Sequence record: ON528736
DNA: 64,000 bases
Reading direction: 5' to 3' (one strand)
Source: Shigella phage ESh26
This document shows, piece after piece, positions 3,933 through 12,227 of the stretch. Position numbers and translations under genes: made by a program. How positions within the stretch are numbered: the stretch's first letter is position 1; every line of letters begins with the position of its first letter. The notes under the pieces are model-generated. The model was not told the DNA's origin and did not search any database. It saw nothing but the letters and a program-made list of their open reading frames with translations.

Positions 3933-5027
3933 ATGGCAATTGTTAAAGAAATAACTGCTGATTTAATTAAAAAGTCCGGTGAGAAAATTTCAGCCGGACA
4001 GAGTACTAAATCAGAAGTAGTAACTAAAACATACACTGCCCAGTTTCCAACTGGGCGTGCTAGTGGTAATGACACTACAGGGGACTTCCAGGTAACAGAT
4101 CTATATAAGAATGGATTATTATTTACTGCATACAATATGTCATCTAGGGATTCTGGAAGTCTTAGATCGATGAGATCTAACTACTCTTCTTCATCTTCGA
4201 GTATTTTAAGTACAGCTAGAAACACTATTAGTAGTACAGTATCAAAACTATCAAATGGATTAATATCAAATAACAATTCAGGAACAATAAGTAAAGCTCC
4301 TGTCGCAAACATTCTTTTACCGAGATCTAAATCTGACGTTGATACGTCATCACATAGATTTAACGATGTTCAAGAAAGTCTTATCAGCAGAGGTGGAGGT
4401 ACTGCTACTGGTGTGTTAAGTAATATTGCTTCAACTGCAGTATTTGGGGCACTGGAAAGTATAACACAAGGTATAATGGCTGATAATAATGAACAGATTT
4501 ATACGACAGCCAGAAGTATGTATGGTGGTGCTGAGAATAGAACTAAAGTGTTTACATGGGATTTGACTCCACGTTCAACAGAAGATTTGATGGCTATTAT
4601 TAATATCTATCAATATTTTAACTATTTTTCTTATGGTGAAACGGGCAAATCTCAATATGCTGCTGAAATAAAGGGGTATTTAGATGATTGGTATCGTTCT
4701 ACGTTAATTGAACCTTTATCTCCGGAAGACGCAGCTAAAAATAAAACACTATTTGAGAAAATGACATCGAGTTTAACTAACGTTCTAGTAGTTTCAAACC
4801 CGACAATTTGGATGGTGAAAAACTTTGGTGCAACATCTAAGTTTGATGGAAAAACGGAAATATTTGGCCCATGTCAAATACAGAGCATCAGATTTGATAA
4901 AACACCTAATGGTAACTTTAACGGATTAGCTATTGCTCCAAACCTCCCTAGTACATTTACTCTTGAGATTACTATGAGAGAAATTATCACGTTAAATCGT
5001 GCTTCTTTATATGCGGGGACTTTTTAA
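3933..5027 (+). CDS. 48: Baseplate tail tube cap gp48
   Basis: 364 aa as in T4 gp48; synteny between 29 and 54. Confidence 0.85.
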   Translation: MAIVKEITADLIKKSGEKISAGQSTKSEVVTKTYTAQFPTGRASGNDTTGDFQVTDLYKNGLLFTAYNMSSRDSGSLRSMRSNYSSSSSSILSTARNTISSTVSKLSNGLISNNNSGTISKAPVANILLPRSKSDVDTSSHRFNDVQESLISRGGGTATGVLSNIASTAVFGALESITQGIMADNNEQIYTTARSMYGGAENRTKVFTWDLTPRSTEDLMAIINIYQYFNYFSYGETGKSQYAAEIKGYLDDWYRSTLIEPLSPEDAAKNKTLFEKMTSSLTNVLVVSNPTIWMVKNFGATSKFDGKTEIFGPCQIQSIRFDKTPNGNFNGLAIAPNLPSTFTLEITMREIITLNRASLYAGTF

Positions 5028-5992
5028 TGTATTCTTTAGAGGAATTTAATAATCAAGCAATAAACGCAGATTTCCAGCGTAATAATATGTTTAGCTGCGT
5101 TTTTGCGACAACTCCATCAACTAAAAGCTCTTCGTTGATAAGTTCAATTAGCAACTTTTCTTATAATAACTTGGGTCTAAATTCAGACTGGTTAGGATTG
5201 TCTCAAGGCGATATTAATCAGGGAATTACCACGCTAATTACTGCTGGCACACAAAAACTGATAAGAAAATCAGGGGTTAGTAAATATCTTATTGGTGCCA
5301 TGAGTCAACGTACAGTTCAAAGTTTATTGGGCTCATTTACAGTTGGTACATATTTAATTGACTTCTTTAATATGGCATATAACTCATCTGGGTTGATGAT
5401 ATATTCTGTAAAAATGCCAGAGAATAGATTATCCTATGAAACTGACTGGAACTATAATTCTCCTAATATTCGTATAACTGGGAGAGAATTAGACCCTTTG
5501 GTTATTTCATTTAGAATGGATTCAGAAGCTTGTAACTATCGTGCGATGCAAGACTGGGTTAACGCTGTTCAAGACCCAGTAACTGGATTGCGTGCTTTGC
5601 CACAAGATGTCGAGGCAGATATTCAGGTTAATCTTCATGCTCGTAATGGATTACCTCATACTGCGGTGATGTTCACCGGATGCATTCCAGTGTCAGTGAG
5701 CGCTCCTGAGTTATCATATGATGGAGATAACCAAATAACTACATTTGATGTTACTTTTGCGTATAGAGTCATGCAGGCTGGGTCGGTTGATAGACAGGCC
5801 GCGCTTGAGTGGCTTGAATCTGCTGCTATAAATGGCATTCAAAGCGTTCTCGGAAATAGTGGAGGTGTTACTGGATTATCTAATTCGCTTTCACGACTTA
5901 GTAGATTAGGGGGAACTGCTGGAAGCATTTCAAACATTAATACTATGACAGGAATTGTCAATTCGCAAAGTAAAATATTAGGAGCAATATAA
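5027..5992 (+). CDS. 54: Baseplate tail tube initiator gp54
   Basis: 321 aa (T4 gp54 about 320 aa); TAATG overlap with gene 48 stop. Confidence 0.85.
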   Translation: MYSLEEFNNQAINADFQRNNMFSCVFATTPSTKSSSLISSISNFSYNNLGLNSDWLGLSQGDINQGITTLITAGTQKLIRKSGVSKYLIGAMSQRTVQSLLGSFTVGTYLIDFFNMAYNSSGLMIYSVKMPENRLSYETDWNYNSPNIRITGRELDPLVISFRMDSEACNYRAMQDWVNAVQDPVTGLRALPQDVEADIQVNLHARNGLPHTAVMFTGCIPVSVSAPELSYDGDNQITTFDVTFAYRVMQAGSVDRQAALEWLESAAINGIQSVLGNSGGVTGLSNSLSRLSRLGGTAGSISNINTMTGIVNSQSKILGAI

Positions 5993-5996
5993 CAAT

Positions 5997-6026
5997 GGGG
6001 ACCGAAAGGTCCCCATATTTTTATTT
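5997..6026. terminator. Bidirectional rho-independent terminator between convergent gene 54 and the minus-strand ORF
   Basis: Hairpin ggggaccgaaaggtcccc followed by a T-rich run; lies between convergent stops. Confidence 0.6.
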
Positions 6027-6311
6027 ACGGAATGAAATGAAAGCAGCAACTGAAGCAACTAAACTGTCTTCAATATAAACTTCAATTTTTACCGGAGCTT
6101 CTGACTCAAATTTACCTGTTACTACACCTTGGAAAATGCTTTCAGTCTGTTCTGGCTTTGAAAAATTTTCAGAAGGAAAAATTCCGAACTTTTTATCTGT
6201 TCCAAAAATTTTGATAAATTCATCATAAACTGCTTCATTAAAAGCGTTATCAGCAGGAATAACGCCTTCAACTACAAGTTCTTGACCTAAAAAGCGTAAA
6301 GAAGATTTCAT
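6021..6311 (-). CDS. Hypothetical early protein (96 aa) downstream of the alt paralogs
   Basis: ATG with GAGGA Shine-Dalgarno; preceded by an early-promoter cassette; acidic small protein. Confidence 0.5.
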   Translation of the reverse strand: MKSSLRFLGQELVVEGVIPADNAFNEAVYDEFIKIFGTDKKFGIFPSENFSKPEQTESIFQGVVTGKFESEAPVKIEVYIEDSLVASVAAFISFRK

Positions 6312-6339
6312 TTTGTGTTCCTCATGTTATGTCAGTAAG

Positions 6340-6375
6340 ATTATTATAACACAACACGAGGGACTTGTAAACTAC
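6340..6375 (-). promoter_or_regulatory. T4-type early promoter (-35 GTTTAC, 18-nt spacer, -10 TATAAT) within a duplicated leader cassette
   Basis: Reverse complement reads GTTTAC-N18-TATAAT; about 50 bp nearly identical to 21832-21892. Confidence 0.5.
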
Positions 6376-8429
6376 ATCTTGAACTTTTTAGACATTCCGT
6401 TGATGTTAACCAAAGAAGCCAAGATTTGAGAAACTTCGTTTTCCTCTTCTTTTGATTCTTCTACAAGGAATTGATTAAACCCAGCCATTGGACGAACTTC
6501 ACCAGTTTCCATTAGATGATCGCCATCATATACCGATTCTTCTAATTGTTCAGAAGGAGGAACGATTGTGCCTTCAATTAGATACTTGTTATAAGCAGTT
6601 TCTTTCATCATGTACGTGCTTACTTTATTAATCTTCAACAAAATTCCACGCGGTAGAATAACTTCAGCTTCTGATGGAAATCCCGATAAATGACCTGGAA
6701 CGATAACTTTGATTCGCTCAGCCCCTTTAATTACCATACCTACGCTAGTTTCAGCATCTTCATTCGCATAAGCAGAATGACTGCCCATATGCATTAAATC
6801 TTCAGCATCAACAGAACCTTCTCCTTCACCAGAAAATACTGCGCCGGAATCATCTAGAGCCATATAGTTTTTACCATGCTCACCGAAGATATTTGGTTTA
6901 AGCGATGTTGATACGAAGTTCTTGAAATAGAACATTTTATTTTCAATATTATGGCGTAAAGTTTTAAAAGTAACTTCTTGTCCACGATAAAGCGTAGTTC
7001 CTGGAGGAAGAACTGAACCTTTGGCAAAGGCAGAATCCAGCGTCTCGATGTGTTTAATAGCTCGTTCCATGTATTCTTCACGGGTAGAATCTGGTTTACC
7101 CAAGAGGAACGAGTTCATTTCAACATATGAATCTGCACAATAATCTTCAATTACATCAGACTCAGCTTGAGTCAGTCCTTTTGGAGTTACTTCGGTGCTT
7201 GCGTATTCATATGCCTGAGCAGCAGATTCATTAATCAATTTATAAATGCCATTCATGACAAATTGAATAATAGCTACCTTTTCGTCTGGTGTGGCTTTAG
7301 AACCTTTAACTAAATCATTGATAATTTTCTTAATAACATCAAAGCTATTAGAAATATTAATGTCAGCGAGATCGCTCAAAATTTTATCGGTTTTATAATC
7401 AAAAAATTCTTTATTCTTTAAATATTCTTGAGAACCTTGATGTGTTATATCGCTCTGCAGTCTGATAGACGGATCACGTAAACGCGCATGGGCCAATGCA
7501 ATATGATTTCGGAAGCTTTCTAGTTCATAATCGTTAGATTTAAAACGAGAAGCACTTCTCATACCACCGATAGCTCCTTTGCCGAAGTTTGAACCAATCT
7601 GAATAACACCAGAGTTCATTGGTCCTTCTGCTTTATATACCGGAACTTTAGATTCAAACTCTTGATATTTCTTGGCAGCGAAGCTATCACCCTGAAGCGA
7701 AGCATCGACAGTAGAATATTGAGCTTGTGCTGCCAATCGACGACTAATTTTAGTTTTCTGAATAACAGCTTGATCCGTGCGCTTATCATTTTCTAAAGCA
7801 ATAGAAGCAGCAACAGCAACAGCTTTAGGAACAGCATTACCTGTTTTAACATCTACATAAACATCACCAACCTTTGATTCAACTTTTGTGAATAACTCAG
7901 TTGAAATAGGAGGTACACCTGGAATGTCTTCTAAATTGGCATTTTTACGGTAAACCATAATATATGCATACTTTTTATCATAATCCCAGATTTCCTTTAA
8001 AAGAACATATCGACCTGCTCCTTTAGTACGTACTAAACGGTCAGCAATAACTTGCATTTGACGAGCTGCGCCATTTGTTTTACTTTTTAGTACGCGGAAT
8101 AAGCATGCATCAATTTTATACTGTTTCATTGTTTGAAGAGCAGTATCAAAAACGGCATTAATGACACCAATTGGATTTCCACCCAAGTTTTTAAGTTTAA
8201 CTAATGATAGTTTCTCATTAACACCTATCATTACGATATGCATCATTTTATCGCCTGGCTTAACGTTTTTATTTGTATCACCACCAGAGGTGTATGTACA
8301 AAATCTAAATCCAGGAAGCACACTTTCTTCGCCGGCTTGAATAGCAAAAATTTGAGGTATTTTATGCTTAGGATTTAAGTTAACAACCGGCGCCGAAGCG
8401 CCGTCAAATAATTCTGTAATAAGTTCCAT
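6372..8429 (-). CDS. Alt-like ADP-ribosyltransferase paralog (685 aa)
   Basis: N-terminal about 220 aa nearly identical to the adjacent Alt; C-terminal ART motifs YRGQ, FKNFVSTSL, EAEVILPRG; divergent centre. Confidence 0.8.
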   Translation of the reverse strand: MELITELFDGASAPVVNLNPKHKIPQIFAIQAGEESVLPGFRFCTYTSGGDTNKNVKPGDKMMHIVMIGVNEKLSLVKLKNLGGNPIGVINAVFDTALQTMKQYKIDACLFRVLKSKTNGAARQMQVIADRLVRTKGAGRYVLLKEIWDYDKKYAYIMVYRKNANLEDIPGVPPISTELFTKVESKVGDVYVDVKTGNAVPKAVAVAASIALENDKRTDQAVIQKTKISRRLAAQAQYSTVDASLQGDSFAAKKYQEFESKVPVYKAEGPMNSGVIQIGSNFGKGAIGGMRSASRFKSNDYELESFRNHIALAHARLRDPSIRLQSDITHQGSQEYLKNKEFFDYKTDKILSDLADINISNSFDVIKKIINDLVKGSKATPDEKVAIIQFVMNGIYKLINESAAQAYEYASTEVTPKGLTQAESDVIEDYCADSYVEMNSFLLGKPDSTREEYMERAIKHIETLDSAFAKGSVLPPGTTLYRGQEVTFKTLRHNIENKMFYFKNFVSTSLKPNIFGEHGKNYMALDDSGAVFSGEGEGSVDAEDLMHMGSHSAYANEDAETSVGMVIKGAERIKVIVPGHLSGFPSEAEVILPRGILLKINKVSTYMMKETAYNKYLIEGTIVPPSEQLEESVYDGDHLMETGEVRPMAGFNQFLVEESKEEENEVSQILASLVNINGMSKKFKM

Positions 8430-8432
8430 GAT

Positions 8433-10526
8433 TTATCCTTGAACGAACTTGTAAGGCATGTTTGTAATATCTATGCAAGACGCAATAATTCCAAGAGATG
8501 ATTCTACTTTTTGTTTAACATTTGATGAAACAAATGATGCAAAGTCAACTCTGTCTTCTATTTCAATATCACCTGTCATTGCAACTACTTCACCAGTTTC
8601 CATTAGACGGTCACCGTCATAAATTACTGATTCGGTGAGTTCTTCCGTAGTCATAACTTCAGCTTGAATGAGTTTTGTATTATTAGATGTTGTTCCGTCA
8701 TTATTAGAAGCATCAGTTATTTTATTAACTTTGACCATCAATCCGCGTGGTAGAATAACTTCAGCTTCTGTTGCTATTCCGAGACTTCCTGGATATACAA
8801 CATTAACTTTATGAGCTCCATCAATTGCCCATCCTATTTGAACTTTAACGTATTCAGGATTTTCTTTATACGCTCTTATTTCGTTTGGATTAATAGTTAT
8901 TCCTTCTTCATTTTTATCAACTGTTAATTCATTACGAGCTTCTGGTTCTAAAAGACCAATACCAGCATGTGTAATTCCAAAACGTCCAAAAATGATAGGA
9001 GTTAAAGAAGTAGATACAAAATTTCTGAAATAGAATACTTTATTTTTAACTAGTGCTTCGTATATAGGAGCAGTCATACTTTGAGCACGATAAACTGTAA
9101 TGCCTTCTGGTATACGGTCACCATTTTCAAAAGCTGAATCTAAGTTATTTATAGCAGATTCAATTTCTTTTTCACTCATTACATCATATCGTTCTGGATT
9201 GTAGCGTCCTAAAAGAAGATTATTGATGTCAGTATATCCTGAACCGCAATACTCTCTAATGCCGCGCTTTTGTGATGGAGTATATTTAGAACCATCACGG
9301 GCAATAGTAATATCAATCATTGGACCTGCACCAATTCCAGAAAAGCTATAAATCATTCGTTTGAGGAATTTAGTTTTTGCTGCGTTCCAGGAATTTTTAG
9401 TTATTTCTTCCCAGACTTCATCTGGCTGTCCTTTACGGGTTTTATTATGTTTATCAAGCCAATTATCTTTATATTCTTCAAAGAGTTGATTAACAGCTGC
9501 TGCGTATTTCTCCAAACATTTTATTGAAGTAGTTGGTTCATTTTTAATCGCATTAAGAATTACATCTTTAATCTTTTCAGAAACTTCATTAACCTCACTT
9601 TTTGAAAAGAATTTATAGTCATAATGAAGTTCATCTGCAGTTCCTTCAGCAATAATTTTTGCTGCCTTAGTTTTAGAAGCTAATGAATTAATTCCAAGCT
9701 TCATTTCTTCTGCTTCGGGAATTAAAGGAGCTGTAGCAGGTTTATTGAAATTAGCTGCGGTAGATTCATACTTCTGGAATAATTCACTTTCAAATCTAGA
9801 AGATTCCAATGACTGACTTTGCGCAATTGCTCTACGGGAAATTTTAACTTTAACGATTACAGCTTGATCAGAACGTTTATCGTTTTCTTGCGCAATAGAT
9901 GCTGCAATTGCCTCATTTTTAGTTACTTGAGCTCCGGTATCTTTATTGATATAAACATCACCGACCTTCGATTCAACTTTAGTAAAGAGCTCAGTACTAA
10001 TTTCCGGAACTCCTGGAATGTCTTCTAGTGATACATTTTTGCGATGTATAAGAATATATGCATACTTTTTATCGTAATCCCAGAGTTCCTTAAGAAGGAC
10101 GTATCTGCCACCTGAACGACTACGGATAAGTCTATCAGCAATAAGTTGAATTTGACGAGCTTGACCAGCAGTTTTAGACTTAAGAATACGGAGCATGCAG
10201 GCATCAATTTTATACTGACGCATTGTTTGCATTGCAACAGTAAAAACTGAATTGATGTAATTAATTGGGCTTGGACCGAGACCTTTTAATTTAGCAATTG
10301 AACCTTTAGCAGTTAATGTAAAAGGAACAATATGCATCATTTTATCGCCCATCTTTAAATCGCGATTAGTATCACCTCCAGATGTATAAGTACATAAACG
10401 AAAACCTGGTTGTTCAATTGCGTCATCAACATGAACTGAAAAAATTTGCGGTATTTTCTTCTTTGGATTTAAGTTTGTAATCGGAAGAGTAGTATCTTCG
10501 TCAAATAATTCTGTAATGAGTTCCAT
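8433..10526 (-). CDS. alt: RNA polymerase ADP-ribosyltransferase Alt (packaged, injected)
   Basis: About 697 aa; N-terminus MELITELFDEDTTLPITNL... and ART motifs YRAQ, FRNFVSTSL, ATEAEVILPRG as recalled for T4 Alt; located between 54 and 30. Confidence 0.85.
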   Translation of the reverse strand: MELITELFDEDTTLPITNLNPKKKIPQIFSVHVDDAIEQPGFRLCTYTSGGDTNRDLKMGDKMMHIVPFTLTAKGSIAKLKGLGPSPINYINSVFTVAMQTMRQYKIDACMLRILKSKTAGQARQIQLIADRLIRSRSGGRYVLLKELWDYDKKYAYILIHRKNVSLEDIPGVPEISTELFTKVESKVGDVYINKDTGAQVTKNEAIAASIAQENDKRSDQAVIVKVKISRRAIAQSQSLESSRFESELFQKYESTAANFNKPATAPLIPEAEEMKLGINSLASKTKAAKIIAEGTADELHYDYKFFSKSEVNEVSEKIKDVILNAIKNEPTTSIKCLEKYAAAVNQLFEEYKDNWLDKHNKTRKGQPDEVWEEITKNSWNAAKTKFLKRMIYSFSGIGAGPMIDITIARDGSKYTPSQKRGIREYCGSGYTDINNLLLGRYNPERYDVMSEKEIESAINNLDSAFENGDRIPEGITVYRAQSMTAPIYEALVKNKVFYFRNFVSTSLTPIIFGRFGITHAGIGLLEPEARNELTVDKNEEGITINPNEIRAYKENPEYVKVQIGWAIDGAHKVNVVYPGSLGIATEAEVILPRGLMVKVNKITDASNNDGTTSNNTKLIQAEVMTTEELTESVIYDGDRLMETGEVVAMTGDIEIEDRVDFASFVSSNVKQKVESSLGIIASCIDITNMPYKFVQG

Positions 10527-10578
10527 CATATCCTCTCTAGTGTTTATTCTATTTATAAAATTAAAGGCCCGAAGGCCT

Positions 10579-10767
10579 TTAATAATCTATTGGTAAGAGA
10601 GTACGGTATATTTCAAACTTTGGACCTTTTTCATAGGCATCAAATGTTTCTGCGAATTTATTATAAGCATATGCATCTATAAATTCAATCATAATTTGTG
10701 ATACAGAAGTAGAAACATCTCCACCTTCTTTTTGAGCCACGACAATTGTTTCTAAGTAAGCTTTCAT
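10579..10767 (-). CDS. Hypothetical small protein (62 aa)
   Basis: ORF between ligase and alt; followed by a GGCC-UUCG-GGCC hairpin at about 10563-10581. Confidence 0.4.
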   Translation of the reverse strand: MKAYLETIVVAQKEGGDVSTSVSQIMIEFIDAYAYNKFAETFDAYEKGPKFEIYRTLLPIDY

Positions 10768-12227
10768 AGACCAGTTACCTCATGAAAATCACCAAATACA
10801 TCCTCGAATGTATTAGCTTTAGTTTTATCTTCACGTAAACGAATCGCAATCGGAAGAAATAATTTAACGTAATCAGTGCGGCCGTCAGATTTTAACCAAC
10901 CATTGCATTCGCACTCTAGAATTTTTCCAATATAATAATTTTGGTTTTCCATAATCCGAGTACGGTCAAGTTCATGCGATTTTACACCGGCTTTATCTTT
11001 TAAGCCTGAACCAGCATTTACTTTAATTTTTCCACATTCTGATTCAAGAATAAATCCACCAGCTTTAGTAGGGTCTTTACGGTGAGGATAAATTCCTACA
11101 ATTTTTAAATCAACATCAATTACTTCTTTAAATTTATAAAGATTTTTTGAACGAGCATTTTCCCACAATCCATCGGTATTTTTGAGAATAATACCTTCAA
11201 GACCTTGGTCAATATACTTTTTATAAATTACCTTAGCTTCATCTAGGTTATTTACTACTTGGTTTTCAATTAAAATTACTTTATCATATCCTGATGTCAT
11301 TTGTTCTAGTTTAGAAAAACGTACATCATATTTTAAACGAAACGCCGGAAGACCATATATTTCTACCAACGGAACATAATCCCAGACCTGAAACTTCATG
11401 CATTTGGCTTCTTTTTCTGAAATAGTTCCTTTTAAGGATTTATTGGCGATTCCATTAGAAGCAGTACGAGATTCCGCTACTTCGGCGAATTCTTTAGCTT
11501 TACTAATTTCAGGATAAGCATCAAAAAGAAAATCTAGGCCTTCTGGTTCCTTTTTAACTTGCTCATGGTATACCAATTCGCCATCGATTAACACACCTTC
11601 TGGATGAATCTGGCGGGCTTCAGCAGTCATTTTGATTAACTCTTCCTTAAGAAGATCTAATCCTAGATATTCATTACCAGCTCGTGATAAAAGACGAACA
11701 TCATCTAATTCATCACCTCGGACTTCAGCAAAACACCGAGCTCCATCTGCTTTTAACTGCGCAAAGGCTGGAAACTTGATATTTTTACTAATGCCTTTTT
11801 CATCATAAGAACTTGCCAACATTTGAGGTTGTTCAGGAATTAAACCTGGCCAAACTTTGTTTGCAATAGATACTGAAGCACCGCATTCAAGGTCTCGCAT
11901 CATCACTCGACGCAAAACTTCAACATCATCCTTTTTACCATCAGTGATATATCCAGTTAATTCCTCAATTGCAGCATTTCCAGTCAATTTCCGAGTAGCT
12001 AACGTGAATTCAATGAAGTCAAGCATATCGGTAATAGTCAGCATTCCAAAACTCTGGGTAGCAATACCAGGCTTAGGCCATTTCTTGATATAATACTGTA
12101 ACCCACGAGAATAAGTCAGACGATATACTCGTTTAAGCAATTCATTATCTTTATTCTTTTCAAGAATTGCTTGCTTCTGCTTAGTTGATCCAATAGATGC
12201 TATTTCATTCAGAATTTTAAGAATCAT
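10764..12227 (-). CDS. 30: ATP-dependent DNA ligase gp30
   Basis: 487 aa; adenylation motif KADGAR; sequence matches T4 DNA ligase as recalled. Confidence 0.95.
   Translation of the reverse strand: MILKILNEIASIGSTKQKQAILEKNKDNELLKRVYRLTYSRGLQYYIKKWPKPGIATQSFGMLTITDMLDFIEFTLATRKLTGNAAIEELTGYITDGKKDDVEVLRRVMMRDLECGASVSIANKVWPGLIPEQPQMLASSYDEKGISKNIKFPAFAQLKADGARCFAEVRGDELDDVRLLSRAGNEYLGLDLLKEELIKMTAEARQIHPEGVLIDGELVYHEQVKKEPEGLDFLFDAYPEISKAKEFAEVAESRTASNGIANKSLKGTISEKEAKCMKFQVWDYVPLVEIYGLPAFRLKYDVRFSKLEQMTSGYDKVILIENQVVNNLDEAKVIYKKYIDQGLEGIILKNTDGLWENARSKNLYKFKEVIDVDLKIVGIYPHRKDPTKAGGFILESECGKIKVNAGSGLKDKAGVKSHELDRTRIMENQNYYIGKILECECNGWLKSDGRTDYVKLFLPIAIRLREDKTKANTFEDVFGDFHEVTGL

Follow-up and report, generated by a model that had tools for sequence, protein, structure and literature searches.

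Tandem Alt-type ADP-ribosyltransferase genes of Shigella phage ESh26 with conserved ends and putatively exchangeable effector cassettes

The locus described here raises the question of whether two Alt-type ADP-ribosyltransferase genes lying in tandem encode two versions of one injected enzyme or two effectors with different targets, and which parts of the proteins set them apart. The locus belongs to a stretch of 64,000 nucleotides (nt) from the Tequatrovirus (T4-like) Shigella phage ESh26 (record ON528736); below, this whole stretch is termed the window. Its two adjacent minus-strand open reading frames (ORFs), termed AltA and AltB, are related to the Alt protein of phage T4 (gpAlt, NP_049811), a head-packaged NAD:arginine ADP-ribosyltransferase. 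T4 Alt is a component of the prohead core, is present in approximately 40 copies, is cleaved at ITE-6 and LTE-619, and is ejected into the host (PMC5694885, PMC9026906). The 4.8-kb locus of ESh26 shows 98.9% identity with that of Escherichia phage ECP2301, and several hundred other records match it at 95% or more. As a whole, it is probably best explained as a two-gene late operon for two Alt-family mono-ADP-ribosyltransferases that are packaged and injected and that carry exchangeable effector cassettes. The best inference for AltB, by analogy with T4 Alt, is a second packaged and injected arginine ADP-ribosyltransferase with different targets. The two genes are as follows:

8433–10526, minus strand: AltA, a 697-amino acid (aa) Alt ortholog of the T2/T6 allele type (PF03496, PHROG 802; AlphaFold2 model with a predicted local distance difference test score, pLDDT, of 73)
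6372–8429, minus strand: AltB, a 685-aa second Alt paralog

According to the BLASTP analysis, AltA and AltB are 41% identical over their full length (E = 1e-161). Both contain the Pfam domain PF03496 (ADPrib_exo_Tox; E = 1.6e-37 for AltA and 3.2e-20 for AltB), and both match PHROG 802 (“Alt-like RNA polymerase ADP-ribosyltransferase”), so their paralogy is real and far beyond chance. The initial annotation, made from the sequence alone, had described two adjacent, paralogous Alt-type ORFs on the same strand (within 6372–10529) that share their N-terminal part but differ in the middle. This description was correct, the identities of these parts being 68% and 15%, respectively. The alternative in-frame ATG at 10529 would give an AltA of 698 aa (8433–10529); the spacing of the ribosome-binding site and the T4 annotation favor a start at the second ATG (10526), which gives a protein of 697 aa beginning with MELITE. 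Pairwise alignment, which had been proposed as a check, confirmed the paralogy and gave the following identities between AltA and AltB for four regions (AltA numbering):

1–235, N-terminal part: 68% aa identity and likewise 68% nucleotide identity, with a synonymous divergence (dS) of approximately 1.1
240–412, central region: 15% aa identity overall, 10–17% in most 30-residue windows
413–620, ADP-ribosyltransferase (ART) domain: 37% aa identity
C-terminal tail: 37% aa identity

The N-terminal parts, first described as almost identical, are therefore less similar than that. Similarity of the central regions, reported initially as unrelated over about 300 aa, is indeed undetectable, but only over approximately 175 aa (residues ~240–415). 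A variable insert is located around residues 520–570 of the ART domains. The profile and homology analysis of the central segments, also suggested at the outset, bears on the same point: the A-type and B-type profiles show no similarity in hhalign (probability 1.7%), and tblastn with either central segment never matches the other copy. Used alone, the AltA center gave no match at E ≤ 0.001 in a large protein database, and the AltB center gave 0 matches among protein representatives versus 263 for the full-length AltB query. These zero results are read as an artefact of tool or coverage and not as rarity, because tblastn on phage genomes found hundreds of matches. In that search, the AltB central region was at least 94% identical in approximately 401 phage records, occurring once per genome, and approximately 44% identical in 44 Dhakavirus records. 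For the AltA central region, 319 phage records showed an identity of at least 90% and Dhakavirus one of approximately 65%; in 437 further records, which include the T4-type alleles, identity was below 60% (approximately 30% among the matches listed).

The AlphaFold2 models (pLDDT 76 for AltB and 73 for AltA) present the parts of both proteins in the same order: an N-terminal helix, an alpha/beta N-domain extending to approximately residue 238, a helical region, the ART domain and a C-terminal tail, which is of low confidence in both models. Combined with the alignments, they delimit the following parts:

10509–10526, minus strand: AltA propeptide MELITE, 6 aa
9813–10508, minus strand: AltA N-domain, aa 7–238, predicted mixed alpha/beta (pLDDT 68–87)
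9291–9812, minus strand: AltA central region, aa 239–412, T2-type allele, predicted all-helical (helices within 248–408, pLDDT to 94)
8631–9290, minus strand: AltA ART domain, aa 413–632, with R480, S505/S507 and E587-A-E589, ending at the gp21-type site LTE632
8436–8630, minus strand: AltA C-propeptide, aa 633–697, acidic, predicted disordered, including YDGDRLMETGEV
8412–8429, minus strand: AltB propeptide MELITE
7722–8411, minus strand: AltB N-domain, aa 7–236, 68% identical to that of AltA
7185–7721, minus strand: AltB central region, aa 237–415, predicted all-helical (helices within 250–414, pLDDT 78–91)
6537–7184, minus strand: AltB ART domain, aa 416–631, with R482, S507/S509 and E587-A-E589, ending at the gp21-type site LEE631
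6375–6536, minus strand: AltB C-propeptide, aa 632–685, acidic, predicted disordered, including YDGDHLMETGEV

The N-domains are basic (isoelectric point, pI, approximately 9.5–9.6) and the C-propeptides acidic (pI 4.2–4.6). The central regions are of similar length in AltA and AltB (173 and 178 aa) and span 170–193 aa in all types. A degenerate second ART fold in the center, as in VIP2/iota toxins, was considered and ruled out, both central regions being predicted as all-helical. The Pfam family PF26846 (Tevenvirinae_ADPRT) is precomputed on database homologs of both types, including a 99%-identical cluster representative (P0001); the local Pfam scan did not report it, and the assignment of the AltB N-domain is based on these homologs and on the 68% alignment. 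A sequence search of the PDB found no Alt structure and gave only weak matches to CdtA and iota Ia over approximately 70 residues.

All motif strings listed in the initial annotation are present in the ORFs. Of the four C-terminal ones attributed to the ART core, YR.Q, FVSTSL and EAEVILPRG do constitute the catalytic set R / S-T-S / E-x-E, but YDGD.LMETGEV does not belong to it: it lies just past the residue aligned with T4 LTE-619, and hence in the removed, non-catalytic propeptide. The arginine, both serines and both glutamates are invariant in the alignment of 17 diverse homologs. In ARTs, E-x-E, as opposed to Q-x-E, predicts arginine specificity; Alt-family enzymes modify arginines of E. 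coli RNA polymerase alpha and of further host proteins. The ExE glutamates are numbered E574 and E576 in the deposited T4 Alt sequence; an inactivating E577A variant of T4 Alt has been published, the mutated glutamate lying within the ExE motif (PMC11404850). Absence of an ART fold from the second ORF had been named as the result that would speak against a second enzyme; instead, AltB contains PF03496 and the R-S-ExE set. It shows the features of C3-like/VIP2 R-S-E proteins (ART fold, N-terminal helical subdomain, STS and ExE motifs) as well as those of the Alt family, namely the ART residues, the Tevenvirinae_ADPRT N-domain, the motifs for the prohead protease gp21 at the T4 positions and the genomic slot.

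T4 Alt is cut by gp21 at ITE-6 and LTE-619, with removal of 63 C-terminal residues (PMC5694885). The search for gp21 motifs, likewise proposed initially, found ITE-6 and L-x-E(~631) in both proteins. The N-terminal sequence MELITE/LFD is identical in AltA and AltB, LTE632/S of AltA and LEE631/S of AltB align with LTE619/S of T4, and the glutamates of both motifs (E6; E631/E632) are invariant across the 17 homologs. The mass calculated for residues 7–619 of T4 Alt, 68.2 kDa, equals the published mature mass, which validates the mapping of the site to AltA LTE632 and AltB LEE631.

Between gene 30 (DNA ligase, 10764–12227) and genes 54/48, the minus strand carries, in this order, alt.1, AltA, AltB and alt.-3. 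A hairpin (~10563–10580) at the end of alt.1 is followed by a TATAAATA box, the sequence GAGAGGA and the start codon of AltA. The AltB ATG (8427–8429) is separated from AltA by 3 nt, and neither a terminator nor a promoter was found between the two genes. The TATAAATA box preceding AltA and this 3-nt gap are the only grounds for proposing late expression of AltB. The two putative signals are:

10550–10557, minus strand: T4-type late promoter box TATAAATA, a motif match only, 23 nt upstream of the AltA start
8436–8439, minus strand: AltB ribosome-binding site AGGA in the last AltA codons, directly before the TAA stop (8433–8435)

Taken together, each protein would consist of four parts: a 6-residue propeptide with a basic N-domain of approximately 230 aa, a helical region of approximately 175 aa, a C3/Vis/VIP2-like R-S-ExE ART domain, and an acidic, disordered C-propeptide of 55–65 aa. 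By analogy with T4 Alt, AltA and AltB would be synthesized late and incorporated into the prohead core through the N-terminal part. Trimming by gp21 at ITE6 and L-x-E~631 would then yield mature proteins of approximately 70 and 69 kDa, which would ride in the head, be ejected along with the DNA and ADP-ribosylate arginines of host proteins, being of the E-x-E type. This best inference of injected effectors leans on the gp21 motifs, the Tevenvirinae_ADPRT N-domain, the acidic C-propeptide and one late promoter. Since the helical and ART parts differ, AltA and AltB probably modify different sets of targets. The N-domain and C-propeptide would be constant ends whose match to the phage is maintained, and the helical region with the ART domain would form the exchangeable effector cassette.

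The comparison with T4 Alt is consistent with such an exchange. AltA and T4 Alt are 99% identical in the N-domain and 95% in the C-propeptide, 34% in the central region and 65% in the ART domain at the aa level; their nucleotide identity is 96–99% up to approximately residue 235, 38–77% between residues ~240 and 615, and 88–98% in the C-propeptide. AltA is thus itself mosaic relative to T4 Alt, with the block of aa ~240–615 replaced. Two main AltA alleles occur in Tequatroviruses, a T2-type (319 records) and a T4-type (174 records), and the allele assorts independently of the presence of AltB: SH7 combines a T4-type AltA with AltB, and AV121 combines a T2-type AltA with the T4-type deletion described below.

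Dhakaviruses carry two or three tandem Alt copies. In the tree of the N-domains, Tequatrovirus AltA and AltB group together, apart from the Dhakavirus AltB orthologs (190 of 200 bootstraps). In the central and ART trees, the B-types of different genera group together (200/200), and the ART domains of T2-type AltA do likewise (200/200). Because the N-domain topology conflicts with those of the central region and the ART domain, uneven rates are insufficient and recombination or conversion is required. The trees indicate that the central region and the ART domain form one unit with one history and that the N-domain alone has a different one. The initially proposed swap of a central domain on a shared catalytic scaffold does not agree with this common history, nor with the 37% identity of the ART domains. 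In a third lineage (L017), the two copies share 78% identity in their N-domains, which are no more than 69% identical to anything else, and 42% in their ART domains. The ART tract of AltA (~395–625) shows approximately 90% nucleotide identity with that of Dhakavirus IME281, the corresponding values for ligase, gp54, alt.1 and alt.-3 being 62–70%; there has been exchange of this tract between genera. Conversion between the AltA and AltB N-domains must be old, if it took place, because their dS is approximately 1.1. Recent conversion in this genome was considered and rejected, because identical stretches reach 21 nt at most and the proportion of synonymous differences (pS) is 0.47–0.74 in every 40-codon window.

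Four A::B hybrid genes were found in the databases (P0003, P0004, P0005 and P0007), each with a single clean crossover, at approximately residue 45, 105, 190 and 215. Each lies directly after alt.1. Two of the contigs (65 kb and 110 kb) continue beyond the hybrid, which is their sole alt gene and is followed by alt.-3. Such hybrids are what unequal crossing-over between the N-domain repeats of the two genes is expected to yield, so that at least four natural single-gene fusions have arisen in this way, and the repeat would thus drive copy loss. An origin as assembly chimeras was considered and is unlikely, because no identical run between AltA and AltB exceeds 21 nt, as against a k-mer of 99 suggested by the name of one hybrid contig (k99_7153, 110 kb); one fusion protein was found on two contigs. 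Logan assemblies use a k-mer of 31. In the pattern as a whole, the N-domain and C-propeptide follow the phage lineage; the central region with the ART domain goes with the effector type and moves from allele to allele and from genus to genus. In the literature searched, no published account of constant ends with an exchangeable cassette, or of A::B unequal crossing-over at this locus, was found.

The second gene had been regarded initially as possibly lineage-specific, T4 having a single alt. This view is contradicted by the intact AltB in approximately 401 records, T2 and T6 included, and by the Dhakavirus orthologs. T2 (AP018813) and T6 (MH550421) carry both full-length genes, 95–100% identical per region to AltA and AltB at the aa level, and both copies are essentially present and described in their annotations, an outcome that had been specified beforehand as refuting the initial reading. 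The T6 record describes AltB as “apparent insertion in alt.-2; also similar to alt”. Annotated pairs without substantive difference occur also in ime09, HY01, SH7 and hundreds of Tequatrovirus genomes, and RefSeq labels both genes “Alt-like RNA polymerase ADP-ribosyltransferase” in many of them; some Tequatrovirus records label AltB “hypothetical protein” or “apparent insertion in alt.-2”. Koch and Rueger (1994, Virology) reportedly compared the alt genes of T2, T4 and T6. GenBank X69893 is the T2 alt gene. The alt.-1 and alt.-2 genes and other alt paralogs have been mentioned in passing and listed as duplications (Nolan et al. 2006, PMC1524935). The AltA/AltB pair is thus already known at the annotation level and is an ordinary feature of hundreds of public genomes.

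T4 lacks one segment of the second gene:

6392–8081: AltB segment of 1.69 kb absent from T4 (blastn; protein alignment agrees)

According to blastn, positions 4714–5113 of the T4 locus (L001) correspond to 5990–6391 of the window and positions 5105–5500 to 8082–8478, with a 9-nt overlap at the junction. T4 alt.-1 and alt.-2 are near-identical to residues 1–55 and 62–117 of AltB and make up a 128-codon remnant. As T4 keeps these remnants and lacks 6392–8081, the polarity is a deletion in T4 and not an insertion in T6. The deletion junction was detected in 91 phage records (T4 and 90 others), and approximately four fifths of sequenced Tequatroviruses, T2 and T6 included, encode a second full-length Alt. 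T4, in which no more than a remnant of the second gene is left after the deletion, therefore represents the derived minority state, and intact AltB the common one. Compared with T2 AltB, the ratio of nonsynonymous to synonymous divergence (dN/dS) of AltB is approximately 0.03–0.1 (dN 0.01 and dS 0.32 in the ART domain); AltB is under purifying selection.

These data bear on two other views of AltB. It could be a redundant or decaying copy without a distinct role, baggage that phages such as T4 are losing. The 1.69-kb deletion in T4 and the 90 other records would fit this, T4 alt is non-essential (PMC9026906), and alt deletions reportedly arise in laboratory T4 (Wu et al. 1991, as cited in bioRxiv 10.1101/2022.04.14.488369). 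However, approximately 401 records at an identity of at least 94% retain the full ORF together with every catalytic and processing residue, its dN/dS versus T2 is low (approximately 0.03–0.1), orthologs are kept in Dhakavirus and two further lineages, and the natural single-gene fusions retain the B effector and drop the A effector; decay of AltB is therefore very improbable. It is similarly improbable that AltB is an unpackaged, ModA/ModB-like intracellular ART acting late in the producing cell. AltB does lack a late promoter of its own, and experimental virion data for it were not found in the literature. Yet it keeps the full head architecture of Alt (MELITE/LFD, N-domain, invariant L-x-E/S, acidic C-propeptide) and is translationally adjacent to AltA, whereas ModA and ModB are early proteins of approximately 200 aa without the head-associated parts of Alt.

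A stronger contender, to which we give appreciable but not prevailing weight, is a simple old duplication with uneven divergence: the centers would be homologous, one helical fold having drifted under weak constraint or diversifying selection, and nothing would have been swapped. The near-equal length of the central regions across types speaks for it, as do the 7–8 helices at similar positions in both AlphaFold2 models, with the last long helix leading into the ART domain, the weak residual similarity of approximately 25 residues beyond the breakpoint, and the A-family central regions, already down to 22–34% identity among themselves. It is opposed by the hhalign result, by a central identity of 10–17%, which is at noise level, and above all by the strong conflict of the N-domain tree with the central and ART trees. 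In the Foldseek search of BFVD with the full-length models, the same SP18 Alt target was obtained with query TM-scores of 0.64 for AltB and 0.52 for AltA, values dominated by domain orientation.

Several observations weigh against the preferred explanation of two injected enzymes with exchangeable cassettes. The similar lengths and helix patterns mean that the central regions may share one fold, in which case the term “different recognition module” would be overstated, and the difference in targets, although plausible, is deduced solely from sequence divergence. The clustering of N-domains by lineage could reflect co-evolution with the core proteins of each phage instead of gene conversion, and the hybrids come from metagenome or Sequence Read Archive assemblies, not from isolates. 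Boxes of the TATAAATA type number 7 in the window versus 9 expected by chance; the late-promoter 8-mer being no commoner than chance, the assignment of the AltA promoter rests on its position. A second exact TATAAATA box inside AltA (9146–9153, minus strand, approximately 720 nt upstream of the AltB start) may be a chance match or may act as an internal late promoter of AltB. The literature search found no functional study of the second Alt, no virion proteomics of AltB and no paper testing its expression, packaging, cleavage, injection or catalysis.

Compared with known systems, the closest is T4 Alt itself, which occupies the same locus between gene 30/alt.1 and alt.-3/gene 54 and has in common with AltA and AltB the four-part architecture, the gp21 site motifs and the R-S-ExE set. 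AltA differs from it by its T2/T6-type cassette; AltB shows 41–42% overall identity with it and an unalignable central region. The bacterial R-S-E toxins (C3-like, Vis, VIP2/iota) contain STS and ExE motifs as in AltA and AltB, but the phage proteins have no binary-toxin partner and no secretion signal and are presumed to be delivered via the phage head; the extra N-domain, the helical region and the protease-removed ends are phage-specific. Polymorphic toxins (Rhs, CDI, MuF-fused phage effectors) share with the Alt locus the logic of a constant delivery part and an exchangeable effector, recombination at the boundary and tandem arrays. This is an analogy and not membership, as the variable unit of Alt is always an ART of one family. 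Scans with Pfam, PHROG and PADLOC found no immunity gene and no Rhs, PAAR, CdiA or MuF domain in or next to the Alts, PADLOC gave no match for AltA, AltB, alt.-3 or alt.1, and the neighbors alt.1 and alt.-3 are constant regardless of the cassette type. Phage internal proteins resemble Alt in being head-packaged, processed by gp21 and injected, and their mature regions diverge among related phages (PMC9026906). They are small and non-enzymatic, with a targeting propeptide of 10–20 aa, whereas in Alt the N-domain is large and folded, and trimming affects the C-terminus as well.

Outside the Alt pair, the slot between alt.1/gene 30 and alt.-3/gene 54 is kept in T2, T4, T6, SH7, Dhakavirus and metagenomic contigs, and alt.1 marks its start in every examined genome that has or annotates this gene. 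The flanking genes in the window are:

10579–10767, minus strand: alt.1 (Pfam PF24647, Phage_blade, E = 7e-29), with a 4-nt overlap with the ligase stop
6021–6311, minus strand: alt.-3 (DUF5498, 96 aa), a separate downstream gene given for context only

A strong sigma-70/T4-early-like promoter (11/12 match, TG extension) is located at 6343–6371, and alt.-3, having its own promoter of this kind, is a separate early unit. Mutants of T4 with a C-terminal extension of Alt.-3 escape the CmdTAC defense system (PMC11618068). Between the convergent gene 54 and alt.-3, a 9-bp GC-rich hairpin (5995–6016) is terminator-like on both strands, with a clean T-run on the plus strand only (ATTTTTATTT, compared with TGTTATATTG on the minus strand).

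Related phages show further variants of the locus. Escherichia phage PSD2002 (Dhakavirus) encodes a third tandem Alt-like protein of 631 aa (298–2193 of L004) upstream of the A-type and B-type genes; its central region has at most 19% identity with any other, and its C-terminal tail 17–26%. An 87-kb metagenomic contig (L016) contains a single-copy Alt of 712 aa (5001–7139) with a center unlike the A, B and first PSD2002 types, and the gene downstream of it is not a recognizable alt.-3/DUF5498. In the T4-like isolate Escherichia phage Pu-Krd-SF5 (5042–7089 of L010), alt is annotated as pieces of 963 and 885 nt with a gap, which indicates either a disrupted gene or a sequencing or assembly problem.

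A broader reading, which we put forward only tentatively, is that the alt locus of T-even phages holds a polymorphic array of effectors destined for injection, in which the lineage-matched N-domain and C-propeptide would serve as handles for packaging and recombination, the cassettes would be swapped across alleles and genera, and AltB would have different targets. At least four mutually unalignable central types would then exist (the A-family, the B-family, PSD2002 copy 1 and L016), and losses through unequal crossing-over would produce phages with A and B, with A only and with B only. The AltB targets might possibly be components of defense or stress responses, with an effect on host range.

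Nearly all knowledge of injected phage ADP-ribosyltransferases comes from T4, which is atypical at the alt locus; its lack of a full AltB accounts for the absence of functional studies on this protein from the literature searched. Should AltB be packaged and act on substrates of its own, the takeover of the host by T-even phages would start with two injected enzymes, and differences at this locus (T4- or T2-type AltA; AltB present, absent or fused) could explain some of the differences among T-even phages on natural hosts. The combination of constant ends with a variable cassette also suggests a natural route for delivering other cargo via the phage head.

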